Source: Hydrogenophaga sp. (GTDB lineage Bacteria; Pseudomonadota; Gammaproteobacteria; Burkholderiales; Burkholderiaceae_C). Taken from it: a stretch of DNA of 34,912 nucleotides. Each line of letters begins with the position of its first letter. Position 1 is the stretch's first letter. The stretch spans positions 1 to 34,912 of the forward strand of contig JANPKR010000257.1 of the NCBI GenBank assembly GCA_031426175.1, read 5' to 3'. Of this stretch, positions 18,689 through 34,912 are shown in pieces. Position numbers and translations under genes: made by a program. The notes below the pieces were generated by a model. It ran no database searches, had not been told where the DNA came from, and saw only the letters and a program-made list of their open reading frames with translations.

Positions 18689-18720
18689 ACTGTTGGACGG
18701 TCGGTTGACTAGTGTTCCGA

Positions 18721-18780
18721 CCCAATAAAGTCGAAAACTAGTCAATAAAGTCGAAAACCGGAAAAAAGAGTCGAAAACCA
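18721..18780 (+). repeat. Three contiguous 20-bp TnsB-binding-site-like repeats
   Basis: CCCAATAAAGTCGAAAACTA / GTCAATAAAGTCGAAAACCG / GAAAAAAGAGTCGAAAACCA, starting 8 bp from the TGT terminus. Confidence 0.88.
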
Positions 18781-18867
18781 ATCTCTGGCTTGGATGCGGC
18801 ACAGTGACGAGTCTTAAGGTCACCCAAGCAACGCCCATGATGACTACCTGCGCGACGAGGCGAGTTG

Positions 18868-18944
18868 AATGGCTCTTTTGCAGCGGTTGCTGCCGTTCGA
18901 GTTTTCAACGTGAATGCCCTTGGCGTGCCGGATTGCGATCACTC
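18868..18944. repeat. Left copy of a degenerate palindromic repeat (two ~30-bp imperfect palindromes)
   Basis: GCAGCGGTTGCTGC (18880) and GCGATCACTC (18935) recur as GCAGCGATTGCTGC (29365) and GCGGTCACTC (29420) with the same 55-nt offset. Confidence 0.45.
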
Positions 18945-19013
18945 CTATTCATGCATCGTGGTAATGCGCAGAGACAGGTTTCAGGCGCGCAGTTGACATT
19001 GCTAGAGAGTTGA

Positions 19014-19226
19014 CAACAGCGTGCAGAGATCTGCAAGCTCGACGAGCAAGACTGCAGCAGCATCAAGCATGGTGCGATCAATCACCTGGGCGTGTCGCCA
19101 GCGTTGATGGCTTACCGCGAGCACAAGGCCATGCTGGGCAAGACTTAGGCCGGCGAGAAGTTCCCGGCGGTTGTGATGATGGGGGCTGGCTGGATGGTGG
19201 TCCCCGACATCAAACCAGGCAAGTGA
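19014..19226 (+). pseudogene. Gene remnant (C-terminal fragment with an internal stop), family not recognised
   Basis: Frame QQRAEICKLDEQDCSSIKHGAINHLGVSPALMAYREHKAMLGKT*AGEKFPAVVMMGAGWMVVPDIKPGK* has GC3-rich codons, TAG at 19146-19148 and no start codon; hairpins follow immediately. Confidence 0.45.
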
Positions 19227-19229
19227 TGG

Positions 19230-19300
19230 TGAGTGGCTGACCCGCCCTGGGTCAGCCACTCAGTCGGGATCGCTGTTTGCAGGTGATCCCGTCCTTTTTG
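19230..19300 (+). terminator. Tandem hairpins / terminator between the remnant and convergent sorU
   Basis: Perfect 14-bp stem TGAGTGGCTGACCC-GCCCT-GGGTCAGCCACTCA (19230-19262), then CGGGATCGC...GTGATCCCG followed by TCCTTTTTG. Confidence 0.6.
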
Positions 19301-19335
19301 TCAGTTGGCGCAACAGCGCTGTGGCCAACCAGCCA

Positions 19336-19683
19336 TCACTTTGATCCACCCGAAGCCTTGGCCACGTAGGCCGCCAGGGCGGCAATTTGCGCATCACTGA
19401 GTTTGCCGTTGTAGGACGGCATCTGCCCAATGCCGTTGCGCAGCGCGGTGGCCACGCGCTTGGCATCGGGCTTGAGCTCGTCCAGGCTGGGGCCCACGGC
19501 GCCTTCGGCTCCCGCGTCCTTGAGCGCATGGCACAGGGCGCAGGCAGGCACCGCGCCTTGGCCGAACAACACCTTGCCTTGTTGAAGTTGCGCGGCATCG
19601 TCGGCGGCGTGCACGGGCAGCACTGTGAATGCCAACGACCACAGGGCAGCGACCAACGCGTGTTTTTGGATTGTGCGCTTCAT
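19336..19683 (-). CDS. sorU: Monoheme cytochrome c, SorU-type electron acceptor of sulfite dehydrogenase
   Basis: Signal peptide (VHA-A), PACALCHALKDAG..GAVGPSLDELKP, NGIGQMP axial Met; ATGA overlap with sorT. Confidence 0.85.
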   Translation of the reverse strand: MKRTIQKHALVAALWSLAFTVLPVHAADDAAQLQQGKVLFGQGAVPACALCHALKDAGAEGAVGPSLDELKPDAKRVATALRNGIGQMPSYNGKLSDAQIAALAAYVAKASGGSK

Positions 19684-20912
19684 GCCACGCTCACTTTCAC
19701 GGCGTGGTCGGCCCAGCTGGTGTTGTTGTAGCCGCCCGCGTTTTCCATGCGTTGTTCGGGCTGCACGTTGCCTGCGGTGTCGGTGGCTCGGCTCGCCAGG
19801 GTGAACTGGCCCGCCGGCAGGCGCGCCGCAAAAACAAACTGCCGCCACGCAAAGCGGCCGAGGTCGGGCCCCACCATGCGCGCGAGCTGCCAGGTTTTTC
19901 CGCCGTCCAGAGAAACCTCGACCTTGGCCACCGCGTTCATGCCGCCAAACGCCACGCCATGGATCTGTGTGTCACCCGCTTTAAGCGGGGCGCCGTCCGT
20001 GCCGGGACCGTTGATCCACGACTTCACCGTCATTTCCTGCACCGATGGCTGCGACGGGTCGCCCTTCGCGCCGGGCGGTGAAATGCGGTAGCCGTGCGAC
20101 ATGATGCGTGCGTCGGTCTCCTGAGCGGTGAAGGCCAGGCGTTTGACGTACTTGATGTTGTTCACGCCCGTGTAACCCGGCACGATCAAGCGCAGTGGGC
20201 CGCCGTGGGCCAGCGAAATCGGCACACCGTTCATTTCCCAGGCCAGCAGGGCATCGGCGAGTGCGGCAGCAGGCACCGAGCGTTCCACGATCACGCTCTT
20301 GGGGTCCAGTCCATCGGGGAGTTTTTCGCCGCCTGTGCCGGTGAGGTAGGCCATGCCGGCCTCCACGCCGCCCAGGGCATCCACCACCCAGCGCACCGGC
20401 ACACCGCTCCACACCACACAGCCTGCTGCGCCCACTTGCCAAGGCGTTCCACTGGGCTTGTTGGGGAAGTAGCCGCGTCCGTTGCCAGAGCATTGCAACA
20501 CCATCGCCGTGGTCTCGATGCCTATGCGCTTGAGGTCGCCCAGCGTGAGTTTGCGCGGGTTCTTCACCCCCTCGATGTTGATCTCCCAGGCATCGCGGTT
20601 GCCCAGGATCGAGGCGTCGGGCGCGGGCAGGTTGTTGCGGATGTAGAGCTGCTCGGACGGCGTGATTACGCTGGTGCCGAACACACTGCGCTTGGTCTCA
20701 ATGGTGGTGCTGCTGTGCACGATCAGGCTGGCCGGGTCCTTCCAGCCCACGTACGCTGGCAGAGGCTTGGCAGCACCGGCCAAGGCGACGGGCGCGGTCT
20801 CACCAGCAGCGGCTGCGGTGCGGCCAAAGCTGGCCAGACCAACGGCAGCCAAAGCAGCGCCGCTGCCGGCCAGCAGGTGGCGCCGGGGGAGCGAGGTGGG
20901 TTGTTGGTTCAT
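19680..20912 (-). CDS. sorT: Periplasmic molybdopterin sulfite dehydrogenase, SorT-type (sulfite oxidase family)
   Basis: Tat signal RRHLL, YIRNNLP, Mo-ligand LQCSGNGR, WSGVP, HGGPLRLIVPGYTGVNNIKY, Ig-like dimer domain, GYNN. Confidence 0.9.
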   Translation of the reverse strand: MNQQPTSLPRRHLLAGSGAALAAVGLASFGRTAAAAGETAPVALAGAAKPLPAYVGWKDPASLIVHSSTTIETKRSVFGTSVITPSEQLYIRNNLPAPDASILGNRDAWEINIEGVKNPRKLTLGDLKRIGIETTAMVLQCSGNGRGYFPNKPSGTPWQVGAAGCVVWSGVPVRWVVDALGGVEAGMAYLTGTGGEKLPDGLDPKSVIVERSVPAAALADALLAWEMNGVPISLAHGGPLRLIVPGYTGVNNIKYVKRLAFTAQETDARIMSHGYRISPPGAKGDPSQPSVQEMTVKSWINGPGTDGAPLKAGDTQIHGVAFGGMNAVAKVEVSLDGGKTWQLARMVGPDLGRFAWRQFVFAARLPAGQFTLASRATDTAGNVQPEQRMENAGGYNNTSWADHAVKVSVA

Positions 20913-20997
20913 TTCTGGGGTCTCCGGTGGTTGGGCGTCGTGCGCCGGTTGGGGTGAAAGGGGTGAGCGGTTGATTCGTTGACAGGGACGCGGTGCC

Positions 20998-21600
20998 TCA
21001 GCCTGGCCCGGACACGGGAGGTGCCTGCAGTGCCGTCTGCGCGACCGCCAGTGCCTTCTTTTTCTGGGCCACCAGCAACAAGGGCTTGCCCTCGCGCGAG
21101 CGGATCACCTTCCAGTGCACGTTGCTCCACCAGCCGCTGGCCTCGCGCAGGTCCACAGACTGGTCAAAGGCATACACCGTCACCATGCCGCCCTTCTCGA
21201 AGAACGTGGTGAGGTGGTAAGCGAGGTGACCTTCGATATCGCATGGCCGCATGAGTTGGGGAAACCCGGGCACCACGTTGGCGTCCCGCATGCCCAGGTG
21301 CATGAGCAACTGGCGCTGCTCCATGAAACTGCCCCGCAAGCTGCGCTCGTGGTATTCGTGGTCGATCGCGTCGCGCACCATCGCTGGCGGTCGCACGGCG
21401 AGCACCCCGCCGCTGGTGCCACCGGCCAGCAAAAGCGCAGCCAGAAAACGCTGCAAGCCGCGTCGCGCCAGCAGCGGCTGCGGCTTTCGGTACAGGTGTG
21501 CCGGTGCGTCGCTGGCCTCGAAGGCGATCGCCAACTCGGCGCGCGCGCGCAAATCGAATTCGCTGTCGGGCAGGAAAGGCGCGTCGGTATCGGGGCTCAT
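20998..21600 (-). CDS. Putative membrane-anchored anti-sigma factor (DUF3379-like)
   Basis: ATGA-coupled downstream of an ECF sigma; single hydrophobic segment; periplasmic part with DHEYHE and CDIEGHLAYHL. Confidence 0.6.
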   Translation of the reverse strand: MSPDTDAPFLPDSEFDLRARAELAIAFEASDAPAHLYRKPQPLLARRGLQRFLAALLLAGGTSGGVLAVRPPAMVRDAIDHEYHERSLRGSFMEQRQLLMHLGMRDANVVPGFPQLMRPCDIEGHLAYHLTTFFEKGGMVTVYAFDQSVDLREASGWWSNVHWKVIRSREGKPLLLVAQKKKALAVAQTALQAPPVSGPG

Positions 21601-22130
21601 GTCTTGGTCCTGCGAAACGGGGTAACGTTGACATCGGCCTTGGGTGTCGCAGGTACCCCCATGGCCAGCTTCAAAGCGTCGCGCGCACGGGCTAGGCGCG
21701 ACAACACCGTGCCGGGCGCGATCTCCAGCGCCTCGGCCATCTGGGCGGTGGGCATGTCGTCGAAATAAAACAGCACCAGCACCTCGCGGTGGATGGGCGC
21801 CAGGCGCGCGAGCGCCTTGACGACATCGAGTTTGTCGTCCAGCCCCGCGTCGGGCGCCGCTTGCTCGGGCTGCTCTTCATCGTCCAGCGACTGCATGCTG
21901 GGTGCGGCCTGGCGAAAGGCGGCGCGGCGCATGATCTGAAAGAGCCAAGCCCGTGCCAGCGCAGCGTCGCGCAGTTGCTCCCGGTGCTTCCAGGCGTTGG
22001 CAAAACAGTCTTGCACCACGTCTTCGGCAATGGCGCGCGAACCAGTGAGCGCCCACGCACTGCGCAGCAAAAAACGGTAGTGCTCACGCACCCATTGGTT
22101 ATAGCGGGACTCGGCAGACTGGAACAGCAT
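21597..22130 (-). CDS. ECF RNA polymerase sigma factor (sigma-B of the island)
   Basis: AEDVVQDCF, RAWLFQIMRR (region 2); LAPIHREVLVL...AQMAEALEIAPGTVLSRLARAR (region 4). Start 22130, possibly leaderless. Confidence 0.93.
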   Translation of the reverse strand: MLFQSAESRYNQWVREHYRFLLRSAWALTGSRAIAEDVVQDCFANAWKHREQLRDAALARAWLFQIMRRAAFRQAAPSMQSLDDEEQPEQAAPDAGLDDKLDVVKALARLAPIHREVLVLFYFDDMPTAQMAEALEIAPGTVLSRLARARDALKLAMGVPATPKADVNVTPFRRTKT

Positions 22131-22135
22131 GGTGA

Positions 22136-22165
22136 TCAAGAGCGCTGCATGGCTTGGTTCATTCC
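22136..22165 (-). promoter_or_regulatory. ECF-type promoter GGAATGAA-N12-GCGCTCTTGA directly upstream of sigma-B
   Basis: Same boxes and spacing as the copy at 24040-24069; ends 5 nt before ATG 22130. Confidence 0.72.
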
Positions 22166-22200
22166 GTGGCGCTCATTGGTACTTTCCCTAGGGCTGTCGA

Positions 22201-22560
22201 TCAAGGCCCCCGCGTCCCACCCAGCGACGGAAATTCCGCTTCCGCACCTTTGGCTGTGCGCTGCTGCAGGGTGTGCAGTCGGCGTTGCATGCTCTGGATC
22301 TCCACCGTCTGCCCGGCAATGATTTCCTCGGCCAACTGCCGGGTGACAGGATCGCGCCCATGCTGCAACACCAGCCGCGCCATGTCCACAGCGCCGGCGT
22401 GGTGCGGAATCATCATCGCCAGAAAGTCCTGGTCGGCCTGGCCTGCGTAGCCCGGGCTGTGCATGGCCTGCATCATGCGGGCCATCGATTCGTCCATATC
22501 CCGCTGGAATGCGCTGGTGTGCGCGGCGCTGGCGCCGTGGCTGGTGTGCGCGCCGCTCAT
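22201..22560 (-). CDS. DUF305 (CopM-like, ferritin-fold) Met/His-rich protein without a signal peptide
   Basis: DQDFLAMMIPHHAGAVDMA...LAEEIIAGQTVEIQSM; ATGA overlap with the upstream beta-propeller gene. Confidence 0.85.
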   Translation of the reverse strand: MSGAHTSHGASAAHTSAFQRDMDESMARMMQAMHSPGYAGQADQDFLAMMIPHHAGAVDMARLVLQHGRDPVTRQLAEEIIAGQTVEIQSMQRRLHTLQQRTAKGAEAEFPSLGGTRGP

Positions 22561-23951
22561 GCCGTCTGGCCCTTCTCGCCCACACGCACGTAGACGAGGT
22601 TGATGCTCTTTTTGTTGCGCAGCGCGCCAGAGGGCAGCGTCAGATTGCCCAGGGGGATCTGCGCAATGAAGGTCGGGCGCAGCGGGTCGCTCACATCAAA
22701 TGCACTGCACACGGTCTGGCCCGCGTTGGGCGTGCCGGGCAGCTCGTCCTGTTCGTGGGCCACATACAGCAGCGTGTTCTCGGGGTTGGTCCACAACCCG
22801 TGCGACTCGCGGCCACGGCTGGAGAAGGTGCCCACCACCTTGCGCTGTCCGCCCGGAGCGCTGCGGTCGATGATGGCGATCGGGCTCGACGCCACGCCGC
22901 CGGGGCCACCATCGTCGATGCGCGCCAGGCTGGCATAGACCACGCTGCCGCGCGCATTGCGCACGAACTCAACGTGGTTGGGCCGAGCGCCCATGCCGAG
23001 TGGCACGGTGTCGATCAGGTCGAAGCCACCCTGCGTCGAGCGGCAAGACACCGCATCAGCCAGCTTGTGCGAGAACCACACCTCGGCACCGTCGGGTGTG
23101 GTCTTCATGAAGGGCGTGAAGCCGGGTTTGTCCTGTGCGCTGATGTCCAGCGTGGTCAGCCGTTGCGGTTGGCTGTGGCCATCCGCGCCGGGGTTGACGC
23201 GGAACACGTCGATCTTCGACACCTTCTGGCTGGCCACAAAGGCCAACGTACCCTCACGGTTGAACCACACCTGCGCCGGGCCGCTCAGTGTGGGCAGGTA
23301 TTGGCGAACCGCGCTGGAGCCCGGGCTGTCGGCCCCCTTGAGCTGGCGAACGGCACGATCGACGCCGACGATGGCAATACGGTCTTCACCGCGCAGCGTG
23401 ACCCACAGCTCGCGGCCGTTGCGCGTGAAAGTGGGCTCGTGCGGTTCGCGGCCCAGCAGCAGGCCACTACTCAGGCGCTCGGGGTTGGTGGTGGGCCCAG
23501 ACGCAGGGTTGGGTGTGTTGCCGATCACGCGGCGCTGCTCGGCGTCGATCAGATAAATGTTGCTGGAGCCGCGCCCGCTGGTGGCCAGCAGCCGGCCGTC
23601 GGGCGACGGCACCGCGCCGTGGGCGTCGATGCAGCCGTGGTACAGCGGCTTGTGGATCATCGCCGCGTGTGTCGGCGCCACGCCGGCGGTGACGTAGCGA
23701 AATGGAGGCCGCGGGTCTTCGTCGAAGCTGGTCAGGTTGATCGTGCTCTCGACGGTGTTCGTCTTCGGATCGATGACGACCAGCGTGTTGGAGTCTTCAG
23801 TGGTGATGAAGACGCGGTCGCGCGGGTCGATGCCGGTGGCTGCGGCTCCCGCTGAAGCGCCGGACGGGGCCTGGGCATGTGCTGCGGGCAGCGCGCTGGC
23901 TGCCGCGGCGGCCAGGGTGTACTTGAGAATGTCGCGGCGTTGGGTGGTCAT
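22557..23951 (-). CDS. Tat-exported YncE/YVTN-like beta-propeller protein
   Basis: Tat motif QRRDILK plus AHA cleavage site; repeated blade motifs SPDGRLL, TRNGRELWV, NREGTLAFV, TPDGAEVW, NPENTLLYV. Confidence 0.82.
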   Translation of the reverse strand: MTTQRRDILKYTLAAAAASALPAAHAQAPSGASAGAAATGIDPRDRVFITTEDSNTLVVIDPKTNTVESTINLTSFDEDPRPPFRYVTAGVAPTHAAMIHKPLYHGCIDAHGAVPSPDGRLLATSGRGSSNIYLIDAEQRRVIGNTPNPASGPTTNPERLSSGLLLGREPHEPTFTRNGRELWVTLRGEDRIAIVGVDRAVRQLKGADSPGSSAVRQYLPTLSGPAQVWFNREGTLAFVASQKVSKIDVFRVNPGADGHSQPQRLTTLDISAQDKPGFTPFMKTTPDGAEVWFSHKLADAVSCRSTQGGFDLIDTVPLGMGARPNHVEFVRNARGSVVYASLARIDDGGPGGVASSPIAIIDRSAPGGQRKVVGTFSSRGRESHGLWTNPENTLLYVAHEQDELPGTPNAGQTVCSAFDVSDPLRPTFIAQIPLGNLTLPSGALRNKKSINLVYVRVGEKGQTA

Positions 23952-24039
23952 GTGTGCTTTCTGAGTTGGTGTGGAGAGTGATCGCTTGGGTCGTGGGCCG
24001 GGAGCCGCCGATGAACCACTGCCCAGCGCTTGCTTCAGG

Positions 24040-24069
24040 TCAAGAGCGCGGCTCGGGCCGTTTCATTCC
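24040..24069 (-). promoter_or_regulatory. ECF-type promoter GGAATGAA-N12-GCGCTCTTGA upstream of the beta-propeller/DUF305 operon
   Basis: Matches 22136-22165 at all 18 box positions with the same 12-nt spacer. Confidence 0.72.
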
Positions 24070-24112
24070 CTGGGCATGCCGACAGCGCGTCGCGCCGACG
24101 CCGCCCTGGCCT

Positions 24113-25012
24113 TCAGCGCGGGGTGCCAAGTTGCCGATAGACCTCGGCCGACACCTGCGCCAGCACGCTGCGGTCGGCGTCGGACGACAGGGCGTAGCCG
24201 AAGGGACCGTCGACCCAGTAGAAGACATTGACCACACCTTCGCGTGCGAAGCGGAAGGCCGTGTCTGTGTTCTTCACGCTGGCCTGCAGTGCCTTGTCCG
24301 GCCCCGCGGCACTGCCCACGTCGGCGACATCGTTGGATACGTACAGCGTCAGTTTGCTGCCGAGCTCGTTGCGGTACATGAACTGCGCCACCGGCCCCTG
24401 GCCGCCCGGCAACAGGCGCCCGCCTTCCAGCGTATAGCCCTGGGCCTGCAGGTACGGCGGCTTCATCGGCGCGCCCATGCGCTTGGACAGCCAGGCCACG
24501 AGCTGGTCTTCGTGCGCCGCGTCCACCTCGACCGGGCGGCGCGGGTCGGGACTGTATACCGCGTGAGCCACCGCCGCGCGCTGCGCGAAGCCGCCCGCTG
24601 ACGCCAGCGTCAGGCCGCGCTCGGCGGGTGCCGCGGCGGCCATGCGGCCGGCATCGTCGCCCCCCGCGGGCAGGCCGCCCCGCAAGCCCCAGCCTGTGGC
24701 GCCGCTGATGACGGCGATGGCGATCCCAGCGGCCAGGCGCTGGAGGTACCAAGGCGTCTGCGGCACGGCGCGCGGGCGCGCCGATTTCAGCAGGCGCTGC
24801 GGCGGCTGTTCATCCAGCACGGGATCGAACAAGGCGTGCAGTTCGCGCTTATGCGCCCGGTAGGCCTCCAAGCGCTGCGCGTCTTCAGGGCGTGCGGCCA
24901 GATAAGCGGCGATCTCGACCTGGCGCTCAGCGGGCAGGCGGCCATCAACGAACGCATGCAGGTCGGCCTCGGTGACCGGGGGAATGGACGGTGGCGGACG
25001 GTCGGTATTCAT
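24113..25012 (-). CDS. Transmembrane anti-sigma factor (PrtR/RsiW-like)
   Basis: TEADLHAFVDGRL N-terminus, TM segment, AVAHAVYSPD..RPVEV, LVAWLSKRMG, GGRLLP...AQFMY; directly downstream of an ECF sigma. Confidence 0.9.
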   Translation of the reverse strand: MNTDRPPPSIPPVTEADLHAFVDGRLPAERQVEIAAYLAARPEDAQRLEAYRAHKRELHALFDPVLDEQPPQRLLKSARPRAVPQTPWYLQRLAAGIAIAVISGATGWGLRGGLPAGGDDAGRMAAAAPAERGLTLASAGGFAQRAAVAHAVYSPDPRRPVEVDAAHEDQLVAWLSKRMGAPMKPPYLQAQGYTLEGGRLLPGGQGPVAQFMYRNELGSKLTLYVSNDVADVGSAAGPDKALQASVKNTDTAFRFAREGVVNVFYWVDGPFGYALSSDADRSVLAQVSAEVYRQLGTPR

Positions 25013-25031
25013 GGGTTGCTTCGCAATACAT

Positions 25032-25535
25032 TCATTTGACGACTTTCAGCCGCACCGGTTCTGCGCGGCCTTCCATCAGGCCGCGCAGGCGCTCACGGCC
25101 TCGCGACAGGCGCGACATCACGGTGCCGATGGGGATACCCAGGGCCTGCGCCACATCGGCATAGGCCATGTCTTCCAGCGTCACCAGAAGAAGCACTTCC
25201 TTCTGCTCGACGGGCAGCAAGTCCAGTGCAGCCTGCAGATCCAGTACAGCCAGCCTGTCGGTTTGTGTCGGCGCCACCGGCACTTCGGGCGTGTCGTCGT
25301 CCATGGTCACGGTGTGCAGCCTGGGACGGCGCACGCCATCGACGTGCAGGTTGTGCATGATGCTGAAGAGCCAGGCGCGCATGTCGGCCACGCCGCCCCA
25401 CAGGTTCGACTTGGCCCAGGCCCGCTCCAGCGTGTCCTGCACCAAATCGTCGGCGTCGTCACGGTTGTTCACCAGTGCGCGCGAATAGCGGCGCAGGCGC
25501 GGCACCCAGCTCAGCAGGCTTGCGTCGTCTTGCAT
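25032..25535 (-). CDS. ECF RNA polymerase sigma factor, PrtI/ECF26-like (sigma-A of the island)
   Basis: VPRLRRYSRAL...ADDLVQDTLERA, RAWLFSIMHN, YADVAQALGIPIGTVMSRLSRGR. Confidence 0.93.
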   Translation of the reverse strand: MQDDASLLSWVPRLRRYSRALVNNRDDADDLVQDTLERAWAKSNLWGGVADMRAWLFSIMHNLHVDGVRRPRLHTVTMDDDTPEVPVAPTQTDRLAVLDLQAALDLLPVEQKEVLLLVTLEDMAYADVAQALGIPIGTVMSRLSRGRERLRGLMEGRAEPVRLKVVK

Positions 25536-25581
25536 CGGGGGGTCGTGGCCTGAGGGTCTGGACGGAAGTCGACAGCAAATG

Positions 25582-25971
25582 TCATTCCTTGATGATGTGC
25601 CAGACGTCTTTGAAGTTGTCGCCGGCGCGGTCGCCGGGCTTCTGGTCGGCCTGGTAGGTGTACACCGGCTTGCCCTTGTAGGCCCACTGGCGCGCACCGT
25701 CGTCGCGCATGACGATCGTGTATGCACCGGCGGGTTGGTCGCTGGCGGCGGCCATCGCGGGCGGCCACAGCGCGGCGCAGCCGCCGTTGCAGGTGCTTTT
25801 GCCGCTGCCTGCCACGTCCTTGTCGAAGGTGTAGAGCGTCATGCCCTTGGCGTCGACCAGCGCGCCGTTGGCGAGCTTGGCCGGCGCGTCGGCAGCCATA
25901 GCGCCGGTGAGTGGTGCCGCGAAGGAAGCCGCTGTGATCAGCAGCGCGGCCAGAGTCGAAAGGTGCTTCAT
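25582..25971 (-). CDS. COG4315 secreted repeat protein (Yx(FWY)xxD motif)
   Basis: Signal peptide; GMTLYTFDKD, CNGGCAALWPP, QWAYKGKPVYTYQAD, GD...WH. Confidence 0.88.
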   Translation of the reverse strand: MKHLSTLAALLITAASFAAPLTGAMAADAPAKLANGALVDAKGMTLYTFDKDVAGSGKSTCNGGCAALWPPAMAAASDQPAGAYTIVMRDDGARQWAYKGKPVYTYQADQKPGDRAGDNFKDVWHIIKE

Positions 25972-26019
25972 GGGGTTGTCCTTTAGGGTCTGGTGGAGAG
26001 TAGCCACGCTGCGTGCCGT

Positions 26020-26451
26020 TCAGTAAGCCGCAGCCACCGCCAGCTTGGGGTCGATCTGCCAGGTTTCACTGACGATCTTGCCTTCACGGAACGTCAGCAC
26101 GTAGCGCACCTTGATGGGCATCTTGCCTTCGAAGACGACGTTGGCCGAGACGGTGGCGCCCTTGGGGTTGGCCGATTCTTCAATCTGGCCGACTGTGAGC
26201 TTCAGTGGGCCGACGGCCTTGCCGAACTTCTCCCAGGTGCCGCGAATGGCATCGGTGGTGGCATAGGTGCCGTCGAGTGGGCCGCCTACCCAGTTCAGCT
26301 GGGCCTGGTCGGCATAGGCACGCATGACGATCTGGGTGTCGCCCGAGGCGATGGCCTGGAAGTGCGTGCGGGCGTCGTCGCTGGGGGCGGCGAAGGCGCT
26401 GCCGGAGGCGAGCGTCAGGGCGGTGGCGGCGAAAGCGAAAGTCTTGAACAT
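26020..26451 (-). CDS. Secreted SnoaL/NTF2-like protein
   Basis: Signal peptide (AFA-A); HFQAIASGD...YADQAQLNWVGGPLDG.Y...IRGTW; GKIVSETWQ C-terminal strand. Confidence 0.75.
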   Translation of the reverse strand: MFKTFAFAATALTLASGSAFAAPSDDARTHFQAIASGDTQIVMRAYADQAQLNWVGGPLDGTYATTDAIRGTWEKFGKAVGPLKLTVGQIEESANPKGATVSANVVFEGKMPIKVRYVLTFREGKIVSETWQIDPKLAVAAAY

Positions 26452-26530
26452 TGTGGGCTCCGATGAAGGGTTGGTGTGAAGTGAAGGGGGGTGAGTGCTG
26501 GACGAAGGGTCCGATAGGTCCCGACAAAAG

Positions 26531-26560
26531 AGCAGACGGCGTCGGCATGCGGTCTATTCC
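26531..26560 (-). promoter_or_regulatory. ECF26-like promoter GGAATAGA-N12-GCCGTCTGCT upstream of the SnoaL-COG4315-sigma-A-anti-sigma operon
   Basis: GGAAT -35 box with a CGTC -10 box in the same register as the other two island promoters. Confidence 0.55.
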
Positions 26561-26612
26561 AGAGCGTGCAAAGAAATTTAGGGTCAGGGCCCTGGGCCGT
26601 GAATTCGAGGCT

Positions 26613-27719
26613 TCAGCCCAGCAGGGCCGGCACCCAGCGGTTGATGAGCGCGCCTCCGACGATGAGCCAGCCGAACAAGATCAACGCCAGCAGCAGCGGC
26701 TTGGCCCCGGCCTTGCGAATGGCGCCGATGTGCGTGGCCAGGCCGAGCGCAGCCATCGCCATCGCCAGCAGCGCGGTGTCAATCTCGATCGTCACTGCCA
26801 CCACCGACGCCGGCAGCCATTGCAGCGAATTGAGCAACACAACCGCGACGAAGCCGAAGGCGAACCAGGGCACAGCGAGTTGACCCTTGGCGTGAGCATG
26901 CTCTGCCTCCACCAGGGCTTGCAGGGTGCTGTCGCGCGCCAGCCAAGCCGACAGCATCACCAGGAACGGCGCCAGCATCATTACTCGAACCATCTTCGCG
27001 ATGACGGCCGAGTTGGCTGCGTCCGGGCCCACCGAACGTGCTGCGGCCACCACCTGGGCCACCTCGTGGATGGTCGATCCGACGTAGATGCCGAACCCGT
27101 TGGCGCCGCCGGGGATCAGCGCCCAGTGCCGGTTCAGCTCGAACAGCGCCGGGTACAGGAAGATCGCCAGCGTGCCGAACACCACCACCGTGGCCACCGC
27201 CACCGTGACCTGCTCGGCGCGCGCCTTGACCACCGGCTCGGCGGCCATCACCGCAGCAGCGCCGCAGATGGCACTGCCAGCGCCGATCAGCATCGCCGTC
27301 TTGCGCTCCAGGCCCAGCCAGCGCGTGCCGATGAGGCAGGCCAGTGCGAAGGTCGAGCCCAATATCATTGTGTCGATGGCGACACCAGCTATGCCAACAT
27401 GGTCAATGTCCTGCACGGTGAGCCGCAGGCCGTACAGCACCACGCCCAGGCGAAGCAGGTTCTGCTTGGAGAAGTTGACGCCGGCGCCGCTGGCTACCGC
27501 CCAGCGCGGGGCCCACGGGTAAACCGTGTTGCCCACGATCATGCCCAGCACGATGGCCAGCGTCAGCGCACTGAAGCCATGGTCCTGCAGCCAGGCGATG
27601 CGGCCCAGCGCGATACCGGTGGCAGCCAAGGCGCCGCTCAGGGCCAGGCCGGGGAGCATGCGTGCGAAAGCCGATGCAGAGGCCGATGTGCGTGGCTCAG
27701 GAAGTACGTTGATGGTCAT
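26613..27719 (-). CDS. yeiH: YeiH / UPF0324 (putative sulfate exporter, PSE family) membrane protein
   Basis: LLRLGVVLYGLRL, LIGAGSAICGAAAV, GSTIHEVAQVVAA, AKMVRVMMLAP, MAMAALGL. Confidence 0.92.
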   Translation of the reverse strand: MTINVLPEPRTSASASAFARMLPGLALSGALAATGIALGRIAWLQDHGFSALTLAIVLGMIVGNTVYPWAPRWAVASGAGVNFSKQNLLRLGVVLYGLRLTVQDIDHVGIAGVAIDTMILGSTFALACLIGTRWLGLERKTAMLIGAGSAICGAAAVMAAEPVVKARAEQVTVAVATVVVFGTLAIFLYPALFELNRHWALIPGGANGFGIYVGSTIHEVAQVVAAARSVGPDAANSAVIAKMVRVMMLAPFLVMLSAWLARDSTLQALVEAEHAHAKGQLAVPWFAFGFVAVVLLNSLQWLPASVVAVTIEIDTALLAMAMAALGLATHIGAIRKAGAKPLLLALILFGWLIVGGALINRWVPALLG

Positions 27720-27773
27720 GCTGCTTGCCTCCGGTTGAAGTTCATGAGGACGAAGCTTCCGGCTTCATAGATG

Positions 27774-27788
27774 ACCCGTCAAACGGGT
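27774..27788. promoter_or_regulatory. Dyad in the yeiH/yeiE divergent promoter (candidate LysR site)
   Basis: ACCCGT-CAA-ACGGGT. Confidence 0.4.
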
Positions 27789-27836
27789 TGTATCGCTAAG
27801 ATGTACCCATCTGATCGCTTTGCAAACAAATCCGCC

Positions 27837-28766
27837 ATGAATACCCTTCGCCTCACGCTGCGACAGCTGCAGATCTTCGTGGCGGTTGCGCGCAGCGGCA
27901 CTACCACGGCAGCCAGCGCCGAGATCGCGCTGTCGCAGTCGGCCACCAGCTCGGCCGTGAATGAACTTGAGCGGCTGCTGTCGCTGCGCCTGTTCGACCG
28001 CGCGGGCAAGCGCCTGCTGCTCAACGACAACGGCCGTGCGTTACTGCCGCGGGCCCTGGCGCTGCTGGACGGTGCCGCCGGCATCGAGTTGATGTCCCGC
28101 GATGGCAGCGCCCAGGCGCAGTCGCTGCGCATCGGCGCCAGCACCACCATCGGCAACTATGTGCTGCCCAGGCTGCTGGCCCGTTTTGTCGCAGCGCAAC
28201 CGGGCCATGCCAGTGCCTGGCGCTCAAAGGTCGTGATCGGAAACACGGCGGCCATCTGTGACGCGGTCGCTGCGTTTGAACTGGACGTGGGCCTGATCGA
28301 AGGGCCTTGCCACCAAGCGGCGCTGGCCGTCACGCCATGGCACCAGGACGAGATGGTGGTCGTTACATCGCCCGACAGCGCGTGGGCACGAATGAGCCTG
28401 GCCGGCGAGCGGGTGCCAATGCGGACACTGCGTGAAGGGGTCTGGCTGGTGCGTGAGTTGGGCTCGGGAACGCGCGAGGCCACCGACCAAAGTCTGCTGC
28501 CCCACTTGCGCTCCTACCGTCGAAGCATCGAGCTGGGAAGTTCGGAGGCGATCAAACATGCGGCCGAGGCGGGTATGGGGGTGGCCTGCCTTTCGTCGTG
28601 GGTCGTGAGCGACGCTTTGGAGGCCGGCCGCCTGTGCCGCATCGCCACGACCTTGCCGCGGCAGCTCCGACAATCTCACCTGGTCGTGCATCGCGACAAA
28701 CAGCCCACCGCTTCGCTGCTGGCATTTGTCGACCAGGTATCTGGCGCCGAGAAAACGGCGCCATGA
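27837..28766 (+). CDS. yeiE: LysR-family regulator, YeiE/CysL-like
   Basis: LTLRQLQIF...SQSATSSAVNELE, LFDRAGKRLLLNDNG, IGASTTIGNYVLP, GLIEGPC, RELGSGTRE, ELGSSEAIK; divergent from yeiH. Confidence 0.88.
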   Translation: MNTLRLTLRQLQIFVAVARSGTTTAASAEIALSQSATSSAVNELERLLSLRLFDRAGKRLLLNDNGRALLPRALALLDGAAGIELMSRDGSAQAQSLRIGASTTIGNYVLPRLLARFVAAQPGHASAWRSKVVIGNTAAICDAVAAFELDVGLIEGPCHQAALAVTPWHQDEMVVVTSPDSAWARMSLAGERVPMRTLREGVWLVRELGSGTREATDQSLLPHLRSYRRSIELGSSEAIKHAAEAGMGVACLSSWVVSDALEAGRLCRIATTLPRQLRQSHLVVHRDKQPTASLLAFVDQVSGAEKTAP

Positions 28767-29220
28767 AATGTGACTCCATCGAGGTCAGGCCTGAGCAGCT
28801 CGCCAGTCGGCGCTCAAAGCTTATCCACGCACCTTCAACGAGATTCACGGCAGGCTCACCTGCACAAATGCCGGATGCGGATGGCGAGGTCAAGACTGCC
28901 GCATATCCACATACCGCACGCGATGTCTTGGGCATTGCGATCCAACGGCCACCCCTTGTCTCCTTCTTTATTTGCGGCGAGAGCAATGATCAGAATGTTG
29001 CAACAGCATCAGGTCAAAGTGAACTATTGCCCGTCTATCACGCACTTTGAGGAGCACTGGGAACCCGGGTGGCGGGTATTGCGCTACGGACACTGAAGGA
29101 CCAAAAGAAGTGATTCGCCCTCCCTGCTGGCGCTTGAAGAAGGCCTGCCCAGGGTCCAGAACACCGTTTCGTCCGTGACGCAAAGGGCCATTCCAGAACT
29201 TTGCACTTCGCTACAGTGCC

Positions 29221-29470
29221 GAACGACCGGTACAGGTAATCGATCGGTCGCTTGAGATCCTGACCGGTGAGCGACCGCTTGCGGTGGCGCCCATGGACTC
29301 TGCCGTCGAACCTAAGTGGCAGCAATCAGTCTTGAGCGGGCGTCGGAACTTCGAGACCCGCTTCGCAGCGATTGCTGCTTTTGGCTCACTCGGGTTTCAA
29401 ACGCACTCCATGCCCAAAAGCGGTCACTCTTCAGCGTCTTCTGGACAGCTGCTTGCGGACAAAGCTGTCG
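29221..29470. repeat. Cluster of about six degenerate ~25-30-bp palindromes (right copy of the repeat at 18868-18944)
   Basis: CGACCG-N15-CGGTCG (29224-29250), GCGACCGC-TT-GCGGTGGC (29271-29288), TGGCAGC-N12-GCGGGCG (29317-29342), GACCCGC-N12-GCTGC (29355-29378), a unit ending in GCGGTCACTC (29420-29429), GACAGC-N14-GCTGTC (29444-29469). Confidence 0.45.
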
Positions 29471-29507
29471 TAAAAGGCGAGCCGTTGCATTGAGGTTTCT
29501 GGGTGGG

Positions 29508-32500
29508 TCAAGTTGACTCCTGAACCTTGGAGGGTGTACGCGGCCGCCTCATAAGCCGGTACACCACCGGCACCACCAACAGAGAAAGCAATGGCGCGCT
29601 GATCATGCCGCCGATCATGGGCGCAGCAATCCGCTGCATCACCTCGCTGCCGGTGCCCATGCCCCAGAACAGCGGCAGCAGGCCGGCCACGATGGTGGCC
29701 ACCGTCATGGCCTTGGGCCGCACCCGCAGCACCGCGCCTTCCCGGATGGCTTCCAGCAGCGAAGGCTCGTCGGTGCGCCCGGCGTCCAGCCGCTCCTGCC
29801 ACGCCTGCTTGAGGTAGATCAGCATGATCACGCCGAACTCGGCCGCCACACCGGCCAGCGCAATGAAGCCCACCACACTGGCCACCGACAGGTTGTGCCC
29901 CAGCAGCCAGAGGAACCACACCCCACCCACCAAAGCAAATGGCAGCGTGGCCATGATCAACAGCGCCTCGTCGAAGCGGCGGAAGATCAGGTACAGCAAC
30001 ACGAAGATGATCAGCAGCGTGACCGGCACCACCAGCTTGAGCTTGGCGGTGGCGCGCTCCAGGAACTCGAACTGCCCCGACCACGACACCGAGTACCCGG
30101 GGGGCAACACCACCTGTTCTGTCACTGCGCGTTGCATGTCCAGCACCGCACCGCGCAGGTCGCGCCCGCGGATGTCCACGTACACAAAACCAGCCAGGCG
30201 CGCGTTCTCGCTGCGCAGCATGGGTGGGCCTTCGGTGATGCGCAGGTCGGCCACGTCGGACAACACCAGGCGCTGGCCGCCGGGCGCCACGATGGGCAGC
30301 GCGCGCAGCTCGGGAAGCGAGTCGCGCAACTCGCGCGGGTAGCGCAAATTGATCGGGAAACGTTGCAACCCCTCCACCGTCTCACCGATGTTCATGCCGC
30401 CCACGCTGCCGGCCACGATGTCCTGCACGTCGGCAATGTTCAGGCCGTAGCGCGCGGCGTCCGAGCGGCGGATGTCCACGTCGATGTAACGACCGCCCGT
30501 GAGGCGCTCGGCCAGGGCGCTGCTGACGCCGGGTACGTCCTTCACCGCTTTCTCGATCTCGCCGGTCAGGCGGTCGATGGTGGCGAGGTCGGGACCAGCC
30601 ACCTTCACGCCCACAGGGCTCTTGATACCGGTGGCCAGCATGTCGATGCGGTTGCGGATCGGGGGCACCCAGATGTTGGAGAGACCGGGCACGCGCACGG
30701 TGCGGTCGAGCTCCTCGATCAGCGCCTCGGGCGTGAGGCCGGCTCGCCATTCGTTGCGCGGTTTGAACTGGATCGTGGTCTCGAACATCTCCAGCGGCGC
30801 CGGATCGGTGGCGGTCTCGGCGCGCCCGGCCTTGCCGTACACGCTCTGCACCTCGGGGATGGTCTTGATGAGCCGGTCGGTCTGCTGCAGCAGCTCGGCC
30901 GCCTTGGACGCCGAGAGCCCGGGCAGCGCGGTCGGCATGTAAAGCAGATCGCCCTCGTCCAGCGGCGGCATGAACTCGCTGCCCAGTTGGCGCAGCGGCC
31001 ACATGCTGGCCACCAGCACCAAGGCCGCCACCACCAGCGTGAGCTTCGGCGCTTTCAGCACCGCATCCAGCACCGGTCGGTACAGCGCGATCAGCGCGCG
31101 GTTCAACGGGTTGGCGGTCTCGGCCGGGATGCGTCCACGGATCAGGTAACCCATCAGCACCGGGATGAGCGTCACGGCCAGACCGGCAGAGGCCGCCATG
31201 GCGTAGGTTTTGGTGAAGGCCAGCGGTGCGAACAGCCTGCCCTCCTGCGCCTCCAGCGTGAACACCGGAATGAAGCTCAGCGTGATGATGAGCAGCGAGA
31301 AGAAGAGCGCTGGACCCACCTCGGCGGCGGCGTCACCAATCACGCGCCACCGCGGCTCACCCTGCAGCGTTTCGCCCGGGTGGTGGTGCGCCCAGCGCTC
31401 CAGGTGCTTGTGGGCGTTTTCGATCATCACGATGGCCGCGTCCACCATGGCGCCGATGGCAATGGCGATGCCCCCCAGCGACATCACGTTGGCGTTGATA
31501 CCCTGCTGCTGCATCACGATGAAGGCCATCAACACGCCCAGCGGCAGCGACACGCTGGCCACCAGCGCGCTGCGCAGGTGAAACAAAAAGGCCAGGCACA
31601 CCAGCGCCACCACGATGAACTCTTCCAGCAACTTTTCACCGAGGTTCTTCACCGCGCGCTCGATCAGGCCCGAGCGGTCGTACACCGGCACGATCTCCAC
31701 GCCAGCCGGCAGGCTGCGCTGCAATTCGGTCAGCCGCGTCTTCACCGCCGCGATGGTCTGCAGCGCGTTCTTGCCCGAGCGCATCACCACCACACCGCCC
31801 ACCGCCTCGCCCTCGCCGTTGAGCTCTCCGATGCCACGGCGCATCTCCGGCCCGGTCTGCACGCGCGCCACGTCGCCCAGGCGCACCGACACACCAGCGG
31901 CGCTGGTGATGAGCGGAATGGCGCGGAAGTCGTCGAGCGTCTTGAGGTAACCGCTGGCGCGAACCGCGTACTCGGCCTCGCCCAGCTCCAGCACCGATCC
32001 CCCGGCCTCCTGGTTGCCGCGCCCCACCGCATCGGCCACCATGGATTGCGTCACGCGGTAAGCGGCCATCTTGTCGGGGTCGAGCATGATCTGGTACTGC
32101 TTGACCATGCCGCCCACGCTCGCCACCTCGGCCACGTCGGGCACGGTCTTGAGCTCGAAGCGCACGAACCAGTCCTGCAGGGCGCGCAGCTGCGCCACGT
32201 CCTGCCCACCGGTGCGGTCCACCAGCGCGTACTGGTAAATCCAGCCAACGCCGGTGGCGTCCGGCCCGATGCTGGAGCTGGCCCCACGCGGCAGGCGTGC
32301 CTGCACCTGGTTCAAATACTCCAGCACACGCGAGCGCGCCCAGTAAGGGTCCACCGCATCTTCAAACAGCACGTACACAAAGCTGTCGCCGAACATGGAG
32401 AAGCCGCGCACCGCGCGAGCGCCCGGCACCGAAAGCATGGTGGTGGTCAGCGGGTAGGTGACCTGGTTCTCCACGAGCTGTGGCGCCTGGCCGGGCCATG

Positions 32501-32654
32501 TGGTGCGGATGATCACCTGCGTGTCGGACAGGTCGGGCAGCGCGTCCAGCGGTGTGCGCTGCAGGGCTACCACACCCCAGGCGCTCAGCAGCGCGGTGGC
32601 CAGCAGCACGAGGAAACGGTTGGCAATGCTCCAGCGGATCAGACTGGCGATCAT
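29508..32654 (-). CDS. cusA: Heavy-metal RND efflux permease, CusA/SilA type (Cu+/Ag+)
   Basis: 1048 aa; [37 protein letters not shown]; Cu(I) Met triad equivalents [21 protein letters not shown]. Confidence 0.95.
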
Positions 32655-34258
32655 TTGCCGGCCTCCGGTGCCACACGCTGCAGGCTGGTGATGCGCGGTA
32701 CGTCCCCGCCCTGCATTTCAAACTCGATCTGCAGGCGGTCCCCCGCCTCCAGATCGCGTGGCTGCTGCGCTCGCGGCGGCAGTTTGAAGTCCATTTGCAT
32801 CGTTGGCCACTTCAGCGCCGCAATGGGCGGGTGCGTGAGCGTGACCGTGTCGCCGCTGAGTGCGTCGATCACCGCGTCGGTGGTGTAGCGCTGAACCGTG
32901 GGCGCAGGCTCCTGGTTGAGCCGCGCCTCCAGCCCGCGCAGACTGGCTTCGGAGTCGATCAGGAACTGGCCCGAAAGCACCACGCGCTGTCCCATCTGAA
33001 GACCAGCGCTGATCTCGGTCTGGCCACCCACCTCCAGGCCCGCCGTCACCTCCACCGGACGGAACCGCCCGCCCTCCTCGGCCACCATCACCACGCTGCG
33101 CCGCCCGGTGTGAATCACTGCGTCGCTGGGCACCAGCAGCGTGGTGGCGGTCTTGGGTCGATCCAGCCGCATGCTCACCAGCATGCCCGGTACCAGCCGA
33201 CCCTGCGGGTTGGCCAGTTGCACGCGAGCGCGAATGGTGCGCGTGACCGAATCTACTTCAGGCAGCAACGCTTGCACCTGGCCTTCAAACGTCTGCCCTG
33301 GCGCACCGGGGCTGGTGGTACGCACGCGCGCACCCGGCTGCAGCAGCCCTGCCTGGCTCTCCGGCACGGCGCCTTCGGCCCACACGGTGCGGGTGCCCTG
33401 CAGACGCATGAGCGTCATGCCCGGCATCACGGTGGCGCCCTCACGCACCATGAGTTCGCTCACGATGCCGGCGATGGGCGCGGTGAGCGTGAAGCGCGGC
33501 TGCACCACGCCGGAGGCCACCACGCGCTGGATGTGCGCGGGTGTCATGCCGGCCTGGCGCATGCGCTGGCGCGCGGCATCTTTCAATGTGTCGGTGCCGT
33601 CAACGCTCAGGCGCGCAAGCGCGAGGTACTCCTCCTGCGCGGCCACCCAGTCGGGCACGTACAGCTCGGCCAGCGGTGCACCGGCGGCCACACGGTCGAG
33701 CGCGGCCTTCACATGCAGCTTCTCCACGAAGCCCATGGCGCGCGAACTCAGTTCCACACGCTCACGCTCGTTCCAGGCCACATTGCCCACCGCCGTCACC
33801 TCCGACACCAGCGAGCCCTCCACCACCGGCGCGGTGCGCAAGCCCAGGTTCTGCTGGATGCGCGGACTCACCGTGACGCTGCTGGCGTCGGCCGCATCGC
33901 TGCCGGCGTAACGCGGCACCAGCATCATGTCCATGAAGGGCGACTTGGCCGGGGCCTCGAAGTTCTTGCCCGGCACCATCGGGTCGTGGTAGTTCAGGAT
34001 TCGCCGACCCGTGGCCGGGTCCACATCGCCGGCCTTGAGAGCATCGCGGATATGCCGGCGCGTGGCTTCTTCGCCCTGCGGGATGGTCCACAGCGACGGG
34101 TCGTCGGTGGACGCTGTGCTGGTGCTTGCCGCAGGCTGTGCGGTGGTCTGCGTGGTGTGGCCCATGCCCTGCTGCATGCCCAGCCACCAGGCGCCACCGC
34201 CCACGGCAACGACTGCGGCCGCAGCGGCCAGGGCGATGAGGGAGGTTGTCTTGTTCAT
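32651..34258 (-). CDS. cusB: RND periplasmic adaptor CusB with an N-terminal Met-rich metal-binding domain and a fused C-terminal CusF domain
   Basis: YHDPMVP...[11 protein letters not shown]; MFP core ([31 protein letters not shown]); tail [20 protein letters not shown] matches the CusF H-W-M-M motif. Confidence 0.93.
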
Positions 34259-34911
34259 GGCTTCACTCCCGCGGAGGTGTTGGGGAACAGGTATTCAAGC
34301 CGCGCCCAAAGGCCGGCGGTTTCGCGCTCCAGCATCAGCCGCTCCAGCGCCAGGCTCAGCGCATCGCGGCGCGCCTGCAGCACGGCGCCCAGACCCTCTC
34401 TACCGCCACGGTAAGCAGCGAGCGCCACTTCAATCCGCTGTCCCGCCAGCGGCTGGCGTTGCGCATCCAGGTGCGCCAGCCGCTGCAGCCCGGCGCGCCA
34501 GTCTTGCTGCCAGCGCTGCACTTGCAGCACACGCTCGCGCGTCTGCTCTTCGCGCTCGGCTTCCAGCTCGTTCACTCGGGCGAGTCGCGCGGCGACTTCG
34601 CGCTGCTGCCGCTGCGGCTTGTCCCACTGCAACGGCACCGACACGCCGATTGACACCATGTTGGAGAACTGCGAACCGCGCTGGCTGAACATGAGTTCGA
34701 CGCTCCAGTCGGGCTTGAGGTCCTGGCGGGCGATTTCAGCCTCGGCCCGGGCCACAGCCTCGCGAGCCTGCAGCGCAACGAGATCGGGCAGGTTGCGCAA
34801 TGGGTCCGCTTCACCCACCGCTGCGGTGATCTGCCGCATGGGCGGTGGATCGGCCAGCGGCTGGTCCGGCGGCCCACCGGTGAAGCGCGCCAGCGTGAGG
34901 CGGGCGTTGGC
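34255..34911 (-). CDS. cusC: TolC-family outer-membrane factor (CusC-like); 5' part outside the window
   Basis: Frame is open to the window edge; PDWSVELMFSQRG...SNMVSIGVSVPL, ALAAYRGG...VLQAR; ATGA overlap with cusB. Confidence 0.85.
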   Translation of the reverse strand, partial: ANARLTLARFTGGPPDQPLADPPPMRQITAAVGEADPLRNLPDLVALQAREAVARAEAEIARQDLKPDWSVELMFSQRGSQFSNMVSIGVSVPLQWDKPQRQQREVAARLARVNELEAEREEQTRERVLQVQRWQQDWRAGLQRLAHLDAQRQPLAGQRIEVALAAYRGGREGLGAVLQARRDALSLALERLMLERETAGLWARLEYLFPNTSAGVKP

Positions 34912-34912
34912 G

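Follow-up and report, generated by a model that had tools for sequence, protein, structure and literature searches.

We analysed a 34,912-nt stretch of DNA from Hydrogenophaga sp. (assembly GCA_031426175.1, contig JANPKR010000257.1; hereafter the window) and concentrated on two overlapping genes on its minus strand. The first (22557..23951) encodes a 464-aa, seven-bladed YVTN-type beta-propeller with a predicted multi-histidine metal site. The second (22201..22560) encodes a 119-aa single-domain DUF305/CopM-like protein with a PHH motif, three helices and no signal peptide. Our joint reading, which draws on a structural model and is held tentatively, is that the propeller may be an undescribed periplasmic copper enzyme and DUF305 its metal-loading partner. 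In the literature searched, only PMC6527743 was found to name both a DUF305 and a YVTN protein, with most subscription journals outside coverage; as far as this literature reaches, the pair is likely undescribed as a unit.

The propeller gene and its DUF305 partner

The propeller protein begins MTTQRRDILKYTLAAAAASALPAAHAQA and carries a twin-arginine signal peptide (QRRDIL ... AHA, approximately residues 1-26; 23874..23951, minus strand). This confirmed the signal for twin-arginine translocation (Tat) reported at the N terminus in the initial annotation. The motif RRx[FLIVAM][LIVMF] is common within the first 45 aa of close (119/121) and mid-distance (125/126) homologues; the Pfam TAT_signal profile scored 19.8 bits on the propeller, below its cut-off of 22.7. 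The database name for the protein is 'YncE family', and the TIGR02276 repeat matched it with 30.9 bits against a cut-off of 27.85.

A word-index search scored 7997 proteins, of which 1747 reached E ≤0.001; the top 120 are 79-92% identical to the query. The exhaustive search gave 349 representatives, which form a tight group above ~50% identity plus a tail at 30-44%. According to their source names, family members come from Betaproteobacteria, Bosea, Sulfurifustis, Nitrospirota, Rokubacteria, Binatia and Zixibacteria. Their spread is patchy: a near-full-length propeller was present in 15 of 400 genomes of the taxonomic family and in 1 of 400 other genomes of the phylum, and one further phylum genome (of 400) gave a distant 33% match.

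The DUF305 start overlaps the propeller stop as ATGA, and the protein contains 10 Met and 8 His, so that both the ATGA coupling and the Met/His-rich partner noted previously are borne out. DUF305 scored 63.4 bits against PF03713 (cut-off 27) and 86.3 against the CopM family NF049983 (cut-off 90), and PHH is present in 120/120 DUF305 hits. Its predicted model consists of three helices and a low-confidence tail; this C-terminal tail reads [FY]PxLxGxRG (22204..22236, minus strand), recurs in 116/120 hits and is a candidate docking motif. CopM of Synechocystis is periplasmic, binds copper and acts in copper resistance (PMC4335983). CopM and the single-domain DUF305 structures (5FEJ, 7VW0-7VW2) resemble the present protein in the HH motif and Met-rich helices (E 2.4e-15 and 4e-11), whereas the present protein differs from CopM in having one domain instead of two, no signal peptide and the FPxLxGxRG tail. 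It also adjoins a propeller, whereas CopM-type proteins are paired with copper-resistance genes.

Next to each other, the two genes form a highly constant unit. Among the best 80 of 277 GTDB stretches and the best 80 of 407 metagenome stretches, DUF305 lies directly downstream of the propeller in 79/79 and 62/63 loci, respectively, that have room for it (at least 450 nt). In a sister family at 19-24% identity, DUF305 was found directly upstream of the propeller in 5/5 plasmid loci viewed, and a DUF305 motif lies inside two long homologues, P0206 and P0232.

The absence of a signal peptide on DUF305 raised the question of whether its true start had been missed. No ATG, GTG or TTG is present within 45 open codons upstream, and RefSeq starts the DUF305 copy on an Acidovorax sp. 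T1 plasmid at the same ATGA overlap; the missing signal peptide is therefore real here. It does not hold as a rule for the family and appears to be a repeatedly derived state. By a simple hydrophobicity rule (not SignalP), 16/80 GTDB partners and 54/67 of the more distant metagenome partners carry a signal peptide; the annotated signal-less DUF305 at locus L183 has an upstream start with a signal, so some 'none' labels may be annotation errors. On a quick IQ-TREE of 91 propellers (118 rows thinned at 97% identity), the DUF305 signal label switches 13 times, at least 8 of which are forced by strong branches. Because partners in the sister family have signals, loss is the likelier direction. Where the propeller has no twin-arginine signal, DUF305 itself carried a signal in all six cases, although the sample is small. 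This pattern fits either hitchhiking through Tat or loading in the cytoplasm and separates neither. Judged from sequence, co-export of DUF305 with the propeller is a little short of an even call. The natural signal-bearing and signal-less variants are a ready test of how Tat hitchhiking evolves.

Two further features of DUF305 N termini were observed. At L072, L075 and L081, short out-of-frame remnants upstream of the signal-less start resemble the signal peptide at L079, and are possibly a snapshot of signal loss. At L063, L067 and L169 the N termini contain RR motifs, which suggests that the partner sometimes has its own Tat-like signal.

Predicted structure and conserved residues of the propeller

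The AlphaFold model of the propeller, built on a 146-row alignment, reached a pLDDT of 95.2 and a pTM of 0.93. Its strand pattern is that of a seven-bladed propeller in which the C-terminal strand closes the ring, and the whole mature chain is propeller. All seven histidine motifs quoted in the initial annotation were found, and they correspond to H95, H100, H105, H111, H171, H295, H326, H384 and H399. Four of these begin inner strands: H111 in blade 2 (23619..23621), H171 in blade 3 (23439..23441), H326 in blade 6 (22974..22976) and H384 in blade 7 (22800..22802; all minus strand). Two lie at second-strand ends, namely H295 in blade 5 (23067..23069, minus strand), which is followed by the conserved K296, and H399 in blade 7, which together with E400 occupies 22752..22757 (minus strand). 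R127, R187, K243 and K296 stand at or just past second-strand ends in the model. In propeller topology, the starts of inner strands and the ends of the next strands open on the same channel mouth. H111, H171, H295, H326, H384 and H399/E400 are thus predicted to converge on one face of a confidently modelled propeller, and on the earlier question of whether the His are dispersed or convergent, topology favours convergence. The loop H95-C107 ahead of blade 2 (23631..23669, minus strand), in which H95, M98, Y104 and H105 are conserved in the core family, would form a cap over the putative site.

Conservation was assessed in the 275 of 404 stored proteins that aligned near full length, binned at ≥75% (121 proteins), 55-75% (126) and <55% (28) identity. 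H326 and H384 are present in every protein of the three bins (121, 126 and 28; 275/275), and R168 and R187 are likewise invariant across all 275. The remaining counts, in the same order, are 121, 122 and 28 for H111; 121, 119 and 28 for H171; 120, 109 and 25 for H295; 121, 126 and 15 for H399; and 121, 126 and 26 for E400. H111, H171, H326 and H384 are therefore kept in 28/28 relatives below 55% identity, which supports the earlier view of them as conserved. H95, M98 and H105 are restricted to the core family (H95: 121, 126 and 0). H100 and C107 are variable and not family-wide, and both positions are His in 15/28 distant proteins. The His content of the propeller is ordinary (10 of 421 mature positions), so the signal lies in where the His stand and how well they are kept. 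Among the 28 relatives below 55% identity, conservation is 85% or higher for 5 of the 10 His, compared to 11.6% of all positions (binomial P 0.003; the relatives are not independent), and in the 55-75% bin the excess is marginal (8/10, P 0.05).

A further comparison covered 15 proteins picked by hand from the core, intermediate and sister groups, the most distant at 19% identity. Y104, H111, R168, R187, K296 and H326 are constant in 15/15, and H171 (H171Y in one protein), H384 and E400 are each found in 14/15. One intermediate group (P0133, P0175, P0191, P0196 and P0200) has no twin-arginine motif and keeps all six His; extra His are often found there at positions 100 and 107.

With six to eight His, one Glu and one Met predicted at a single channel mouth, invariant Arg/Lys next to them and a CopM-like partner kept across ~80% divergence, the site is best taken as a copper centre that has an anion pocket and its own loader. 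On these grounds the propeller very probably binds metal, and the metal is rather more probably copper than not. The odds lean to a similar degree towards a catalytic protein.

The propeller has no close relative of known structure. A PDB search with the single propeller sequence gave 0 matches, a profile search matched 13 generic propellers, and no solved relative exceeded 21% identity. Solved YVTN propellers have different residues at the aligned blade-start positions. In the Foldseek and structural ranking, 1L0Q came first (Z 38.3), followed by lactonases (33-37), NosZ (31.3), thiocyanate dehydrogenase (TcDH; 28.0) and selenium-binding protein (27.6), all at ≤21% identity; the modelled fold alone does not choose among them. 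The best match, the YVTN/YncE propeller 1L0Q, superimposes with an rmsd of 1.9 over 298 residues at 21% identity.

The high rank of lactonases, with 6-phosphogluconolactonases at Z 33-37, agrees with a partial PF10282 match over residues 168-339 (35.4 bits, gathering cut-off 21.7). Both would favour a metal-free hydrolase, or a ligand-binding lactonase/YncE-type propeller, in which the His act as acid-base residues. We regard this as very improbable. The GPRH and NE motifs have a catalytic role in PF10282 lactonases, but they align to GPAQ/GPAM and SQK in the present propeller. Neither the YVTN/YncE propellers (1L0Q, 3VGZ) nor the PF10282 lactonases have its His ring and cap loop, and a hydrolase would leave the six to eight His and the constant CopM-like partner unexplained. 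A heme or other tetrapyrrole binder like NirF or NirN is less plausible again, and in our view hardly credible. It would draw on a weak profile match to NirF (E 1.9e-7), on NirN and cd1 proteins among the Foldseek hits, on His plus Arg on one face and on Tat export. The heme d1 propeller family has eight blades, however, whereas the present propeller has seven, and no nir genes were found among the neighbours scanned.

Among the copper propellers, the NosZ CuZ domain (2IWF) superimposes with Z 31.3 and an rmsd of 3.6 over 336 residues. In blade 2, H111 aligned with the NosZ NPHG histidine (E 2.5e-5), which by spacing is the CuZ ligand H326 of NosZ (PMC8179356). Six blades were tested against NosZ; a second, blade 7, aligned weakly (E 0.077), and the other four place no His. 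The present protein differs from NosZ in that it has no C-terminal CuA cupredoxin domain, no nos cluster and no TIGR04244 match, and in that two of its six His end second strands. An Atlas cluster with nos_propeller_2 scores 0.90 once lactonase-like families are skipped, which is a lead only.

TcDH is exported by Tat and holds copper in its central cavity (PMC6504805). The TcDH structure 5F75 and the present protein are both seven-bladed with a Tat signal (Z 28.0, rmsd 2.7 over 323 residues), but structural identity is 12-14%, there is no sequence match, and the homology level of >30% given in PMC6504805 is not reached. TcDH has CopCD or Cus as neighbours, whereas the present propeller has DUF305. 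Proteins of the selenium-binding protein/methanethiol oxidase family are copper-dependent thiol oxidases and also seven-bladed propellers; 2ECE gave Z 27.6 at 11% identity, and the SBP56 family profile did not match the propeller in Pfam or NCBIfam. These comparisons describe a real, undescribed propeller family, whose mode of action is plausibly that of the copper propeller enzymes although it belongs to none of them. Few such copper enzymes are known, and the chemistry that each performs on small molecules is unusual. The present family is annotated only as 'YncE', spans several phyla without a solved structure, and its sister group includes Escherichia coli plasmids.

Proposed sulfite-linked regulation and function

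The pair is followed on the same strand by a sigma factor of the extracytoplasmic function (ECF) type, which we call sigB (21597..22139, minus strand). It lies directly upstream of a putative anti-sigma factor (20998..21600, assigned by position, with no family match), the sulfite dehydrogenase gene sorT (19680..20912; NF052247, 652.9 bits, cut-off 570) and the cytochrome c gene sorU (19336..19683; NF052248, 118.1 bits, cut-off 100), all on the minus strand. By gene order, this ECF/anti-sigma arrangement directly upstream of sorT corresponds to group 3 of PMC6527743, the ECF-controlled sulfite dehydrogenase operons with this order in Burkholderiales. Sulfite-responsive control of sorT is exerted by ECF26 factors (PMC3511301).

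We observed the same ECF-type promoter-like motif, GGAAT-N16-CGCTC, before the propeller (24044..24069, minus strand) and before sigB (22140..22165, minus strand). The strict form GAATGAA-N13-CGYTC has two matches in the window (0.01 expected), before the propeller and sigB, and these are its only two in the 3.39-Mb genome. Because the same two sites were the source of the pattern, this expectation is generous, and it is the comparative test that carries the weight. In that test, GGAAT-N16-CG[CT]?TC preceded the propeller in 21/28 distinct loci with sigB downstream and in 0/22 without sigB, and 4 of the 7 loci missing it have near-matches by eye. The motif preceded sigB in 53/54 loci, a set that was not dereplicated. 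A looser pattern was found in 0/64 metagenome upstream regions and 4/634 coding windows. Related loci in all of these counts are not independent. No motif was found directly before sorT in 17 distinct upstream regions, and the GGAAT/CGTC consensus, of which the present motif is a variant, was not found before beta-proteobacterial sorT genes in PMC6527743 either. We infer that sigB drives both the propeller/DUF305 pair and the sigB-anti-sigma-sorTU genes. The motif makes the beta-proteobacterial sorT regulators directly testable. On the broader claim set out below, which we consider doubtful, GGAAT-N16-CGCTC would supply the promoter so far missing for the sulfite-responsive ECF sigma factors of beta-proteobacteria.

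A related arrangement exists in Starkeya novella, where Snov_0990 (DUF305) and Snov_0991 (YVTN) adjoin RpoE1 and its anti-sigma factor and are tied to the regulation of sulfite dehydrogenase (PMC6527743). RpoE1 activates their promoter and SigE does so weakly; tetrathionate induces Snov_0991, which is low on thiosulfate. PMC6527743 proposes no function, metal site or partnership for the two genes. The gene order is the reverse of that in the present pair. The published quantitative PCR primers for Snov_0991 translate to TLKDIG and IAHNAN, which match sister proteins, and on these 13 residues Snov_0991 is probably a distant sister-group homologue (~20-30% identity) and not a member of the core family.

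The cassette that carries the pair also encodes a YeiH-family exporter (26613..27719, minus strand; TIGR00698, 371 bits, cut-off 232.6) and a divergent LysR regulator with YeiE as best match (27771..28766, plus strand; 334 bits, below the 480 cut-off). In Salmonella, YeiE/YeiH provide resistance to sulfite (bioRxiv 2025.07.27.662810), and in Hyphomicrobium their genes head those induced by thiosulfate (PMC12423496). Sulfur-linked ECF recruitment in two distant lineages, together with cassette genes that remove sulfite, points to detoxification of reactive sulfur species or radicals.

From these data we propose the following mechanism for the copper-enzyme reading. The propeller is predicted to be exported folded by Tat. 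A ring of six conserved His and Glu400 at the mouth of the central channel would bind one or more metal ions, and an Arg/Lys pocket beside the ring may hold a small anion. DUF305, the constant genetic partner, would likely be the copper-loading subunit; where it is signal-less, it would be exported in complex with the propeller or else supply the propeller with copper in the cytoplasm. In the Burkholderiales cassette, the same ECF sigma factor would switch on the pair and sorTU. The enzyme would then destroy reactive sulfur species, or radicals accompanying sulfite stress, acting in parallel to SorT and YeiH rather than feeding SorT. Since no electron carrier accompanies the pair, the acceptor may be O2, or the reaction a dismutation. 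A sulfur substrate is possible, though somewhat less likely than not. A broader claim, which we consider doubtful, is that the protein is the founding member of a widespread copper beta-propeller family apart from NosZ, TcDH and methanethiol oxidase that detoxifies reactive sulfur, with DUF305 delivering the copper and repeatedly losing its signal to hitchhike through Tat. If true, DUF305 would gain its first client protein; if the propeller is a metalloenzyme, it would add a reaction to the bacterial defence against sulfite or redox stress.

Several observations weigh against the copper-enzyme reading. The universal unit consists of two genes without an obvious electron carrier, and one locus, L132, lacks DUF305. 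Putative ligands are swapped in the 55-75% bin (H171 in 7/126, H295 in 17/126 and H111 in 4/126). Only 2/28 distant homologues have the Tat motif, which is also absent from one core member; the site thus does not need Tat. Lactonases likewise have a blade-start His (in GPRH), and the whole-domain profile comparison with NosZ was not significant (probability 18%). No copper gene is conserved nearby, with cusA-like matches at 3/80 and 1/80 loci. Neighbours of distant members are mixed, with a minority of superoxide dismutase (SOD), DsrC-like, P460, catalase and peroxiredoxin genes. Lastly, among loci with at least 3 kb downstream, sorT lies near just 3/20 GTDB loci below 88% identity and 0/26 distant metagenome loci, compared to 46/47 GTDB loci at ≥88% identity. 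The sulfur link drawn previously is thus specific to a lineage; sulfur is not a family-wide link.

The initial annotation had gone further and suggested that the propeller feeds sulfite to SorT, for which we found no specific support. If the propeller were a copper oxidase of sulfur catabolism, comparable to TcDH or methanethiol oxidase and making sulfite (or sulfur) for SorT, it would share their fold class, Tat export and His count, and its likely co-regulation with sorTU would fit, as would the induction of the sister gene on tetrathionate. We nevertheless consider this role very unlikely: TcDH and selenium-binding protein are just 11-14% identical and rank below lactonases, no sulfur-oxidation pathway is conserved nearby, and the rest of the cassette removes sulfite.

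Metals promote sulfite autoxidation. The pair could be a non-catalytic periplasmic metal sink, in which propeller and DUF305 sequester copper or another transition metal and so curb the radical reactions of sulfite that metals catalyse. Such a sink agrees with the missing electron carrier and the tolerated ligand swaps, and CopM confers copper resistance by binding copper (PMC4335983). We hold it to be unlikely, however, because the invariant R168 and R187 and the near-invariant K296, E400 and Y104 around the His resemble a substrate pocket and not a sponge, the propeller is not rich in His and Met overall, and the pair is not co-located with copper-resistance genes.

The neighbours of distant members (58 cluster representatives, 110 further neighbours and 14 from one clade, out of 824 called genes) raise another explanation, namely a metalloenzyme of general oxidative or nitrosative stress that has superoxide, peroxide or NO as its target and was recruited to sulfite regulons only secondarily. 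Some distant loci, in which sorT is missing, contain Fe/Mn SOD (5), cytochrome P460 (4), ankyrin proteins, catalase, thiol peroxidase or thioredoxin reductase. The majority of these loci, however, come from a single small clade, and most other neighbours are unrelated; DsrC-like genes are present in 5 loci, and the sister loci L089, L182 and L183 stand beside TDT or YeiH-type exporters, of which the TDT exporters serve sulfite export. We judge this explanation to be quite unlikely. In the clade formed by L112, L132, L157, L162 and L164, the pair was seen amid SOD, cytochrome P460, thiol peroxidase, DsrC-like and heme-synthesis-like genes.

The mobile sulfite-defence cassette

The pair, sorTU and the exporter belong to a sharply bounded mobile cassette of 10.45 kb (18880..29332), which is 98-99.9% identical across genera. 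It was found in loci labelled Hydrogenophaga, Curvibacter, Acidovorax, Polaromonas and others, with differing flanks, and contigs from public runs break at the same two ends. Upstream of the propeller, the cassette further encodes an anti-sigma factor (24113..25012, named after the RefSeq entry of the plasmid copy), a second ECF sigma factor, sigA (25032..25535), and a Lipoprotein_15 secreted-repeat protein with a SnoaL-like protein (25582..26451), all on the minus strand. Canonical GGAAT...CGTC sites precede snoaL (26535-26560) and sigA (25561-25588; both minus strand), with 3 matches in the window against 1.0 expected. The motif before snoaL was present in 18/18 distinct loci, which suggests a second regulon under sigA.

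Just outside the cassette, at 29508-34912 (minus strand), are cusA, a cusB fused to a CusF domain and an incomplete cusC. Since they lie beyond its boundary, cusCBA was ruled out as a clue to copper.

No transposase or integrase was found within the cassette. Its ends (18880-18899 and 29150-29480) and the spacer before cusA contain a number of short palindromes, all imperfect, and matches to the left 20 nt exist elsewhere in related genomes; the ends may reflect a site-specific cassette system. A Tn7-like trait lies outside the left end, at 18713-18782, where a TGT start 24 nt past the glmS stop is followed by three 20-nt direct repeats. We take this segment to resemble a Tn7-type transposon end at attTn7. 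About 10 of 58 same-genus genomes match past the glmS stop into it. No second copy of the end repeat was found in the incomplete genome, and TniQ was not found in this 83%-complete genome, in which the control gave no match anywhere either.

Two plasmid contexts were also observed. On the Acidovorax sp. T1 plasmid (L088), Tn3-family transposases flank a truncated cassette copy, beside chromate-resistance genes. The sister DUF305-YncE pair is carried on Escherichia plasmids in 15 records, and in one of these (L181, NZ_CP076707.1) it lies near annotated virulence genes.

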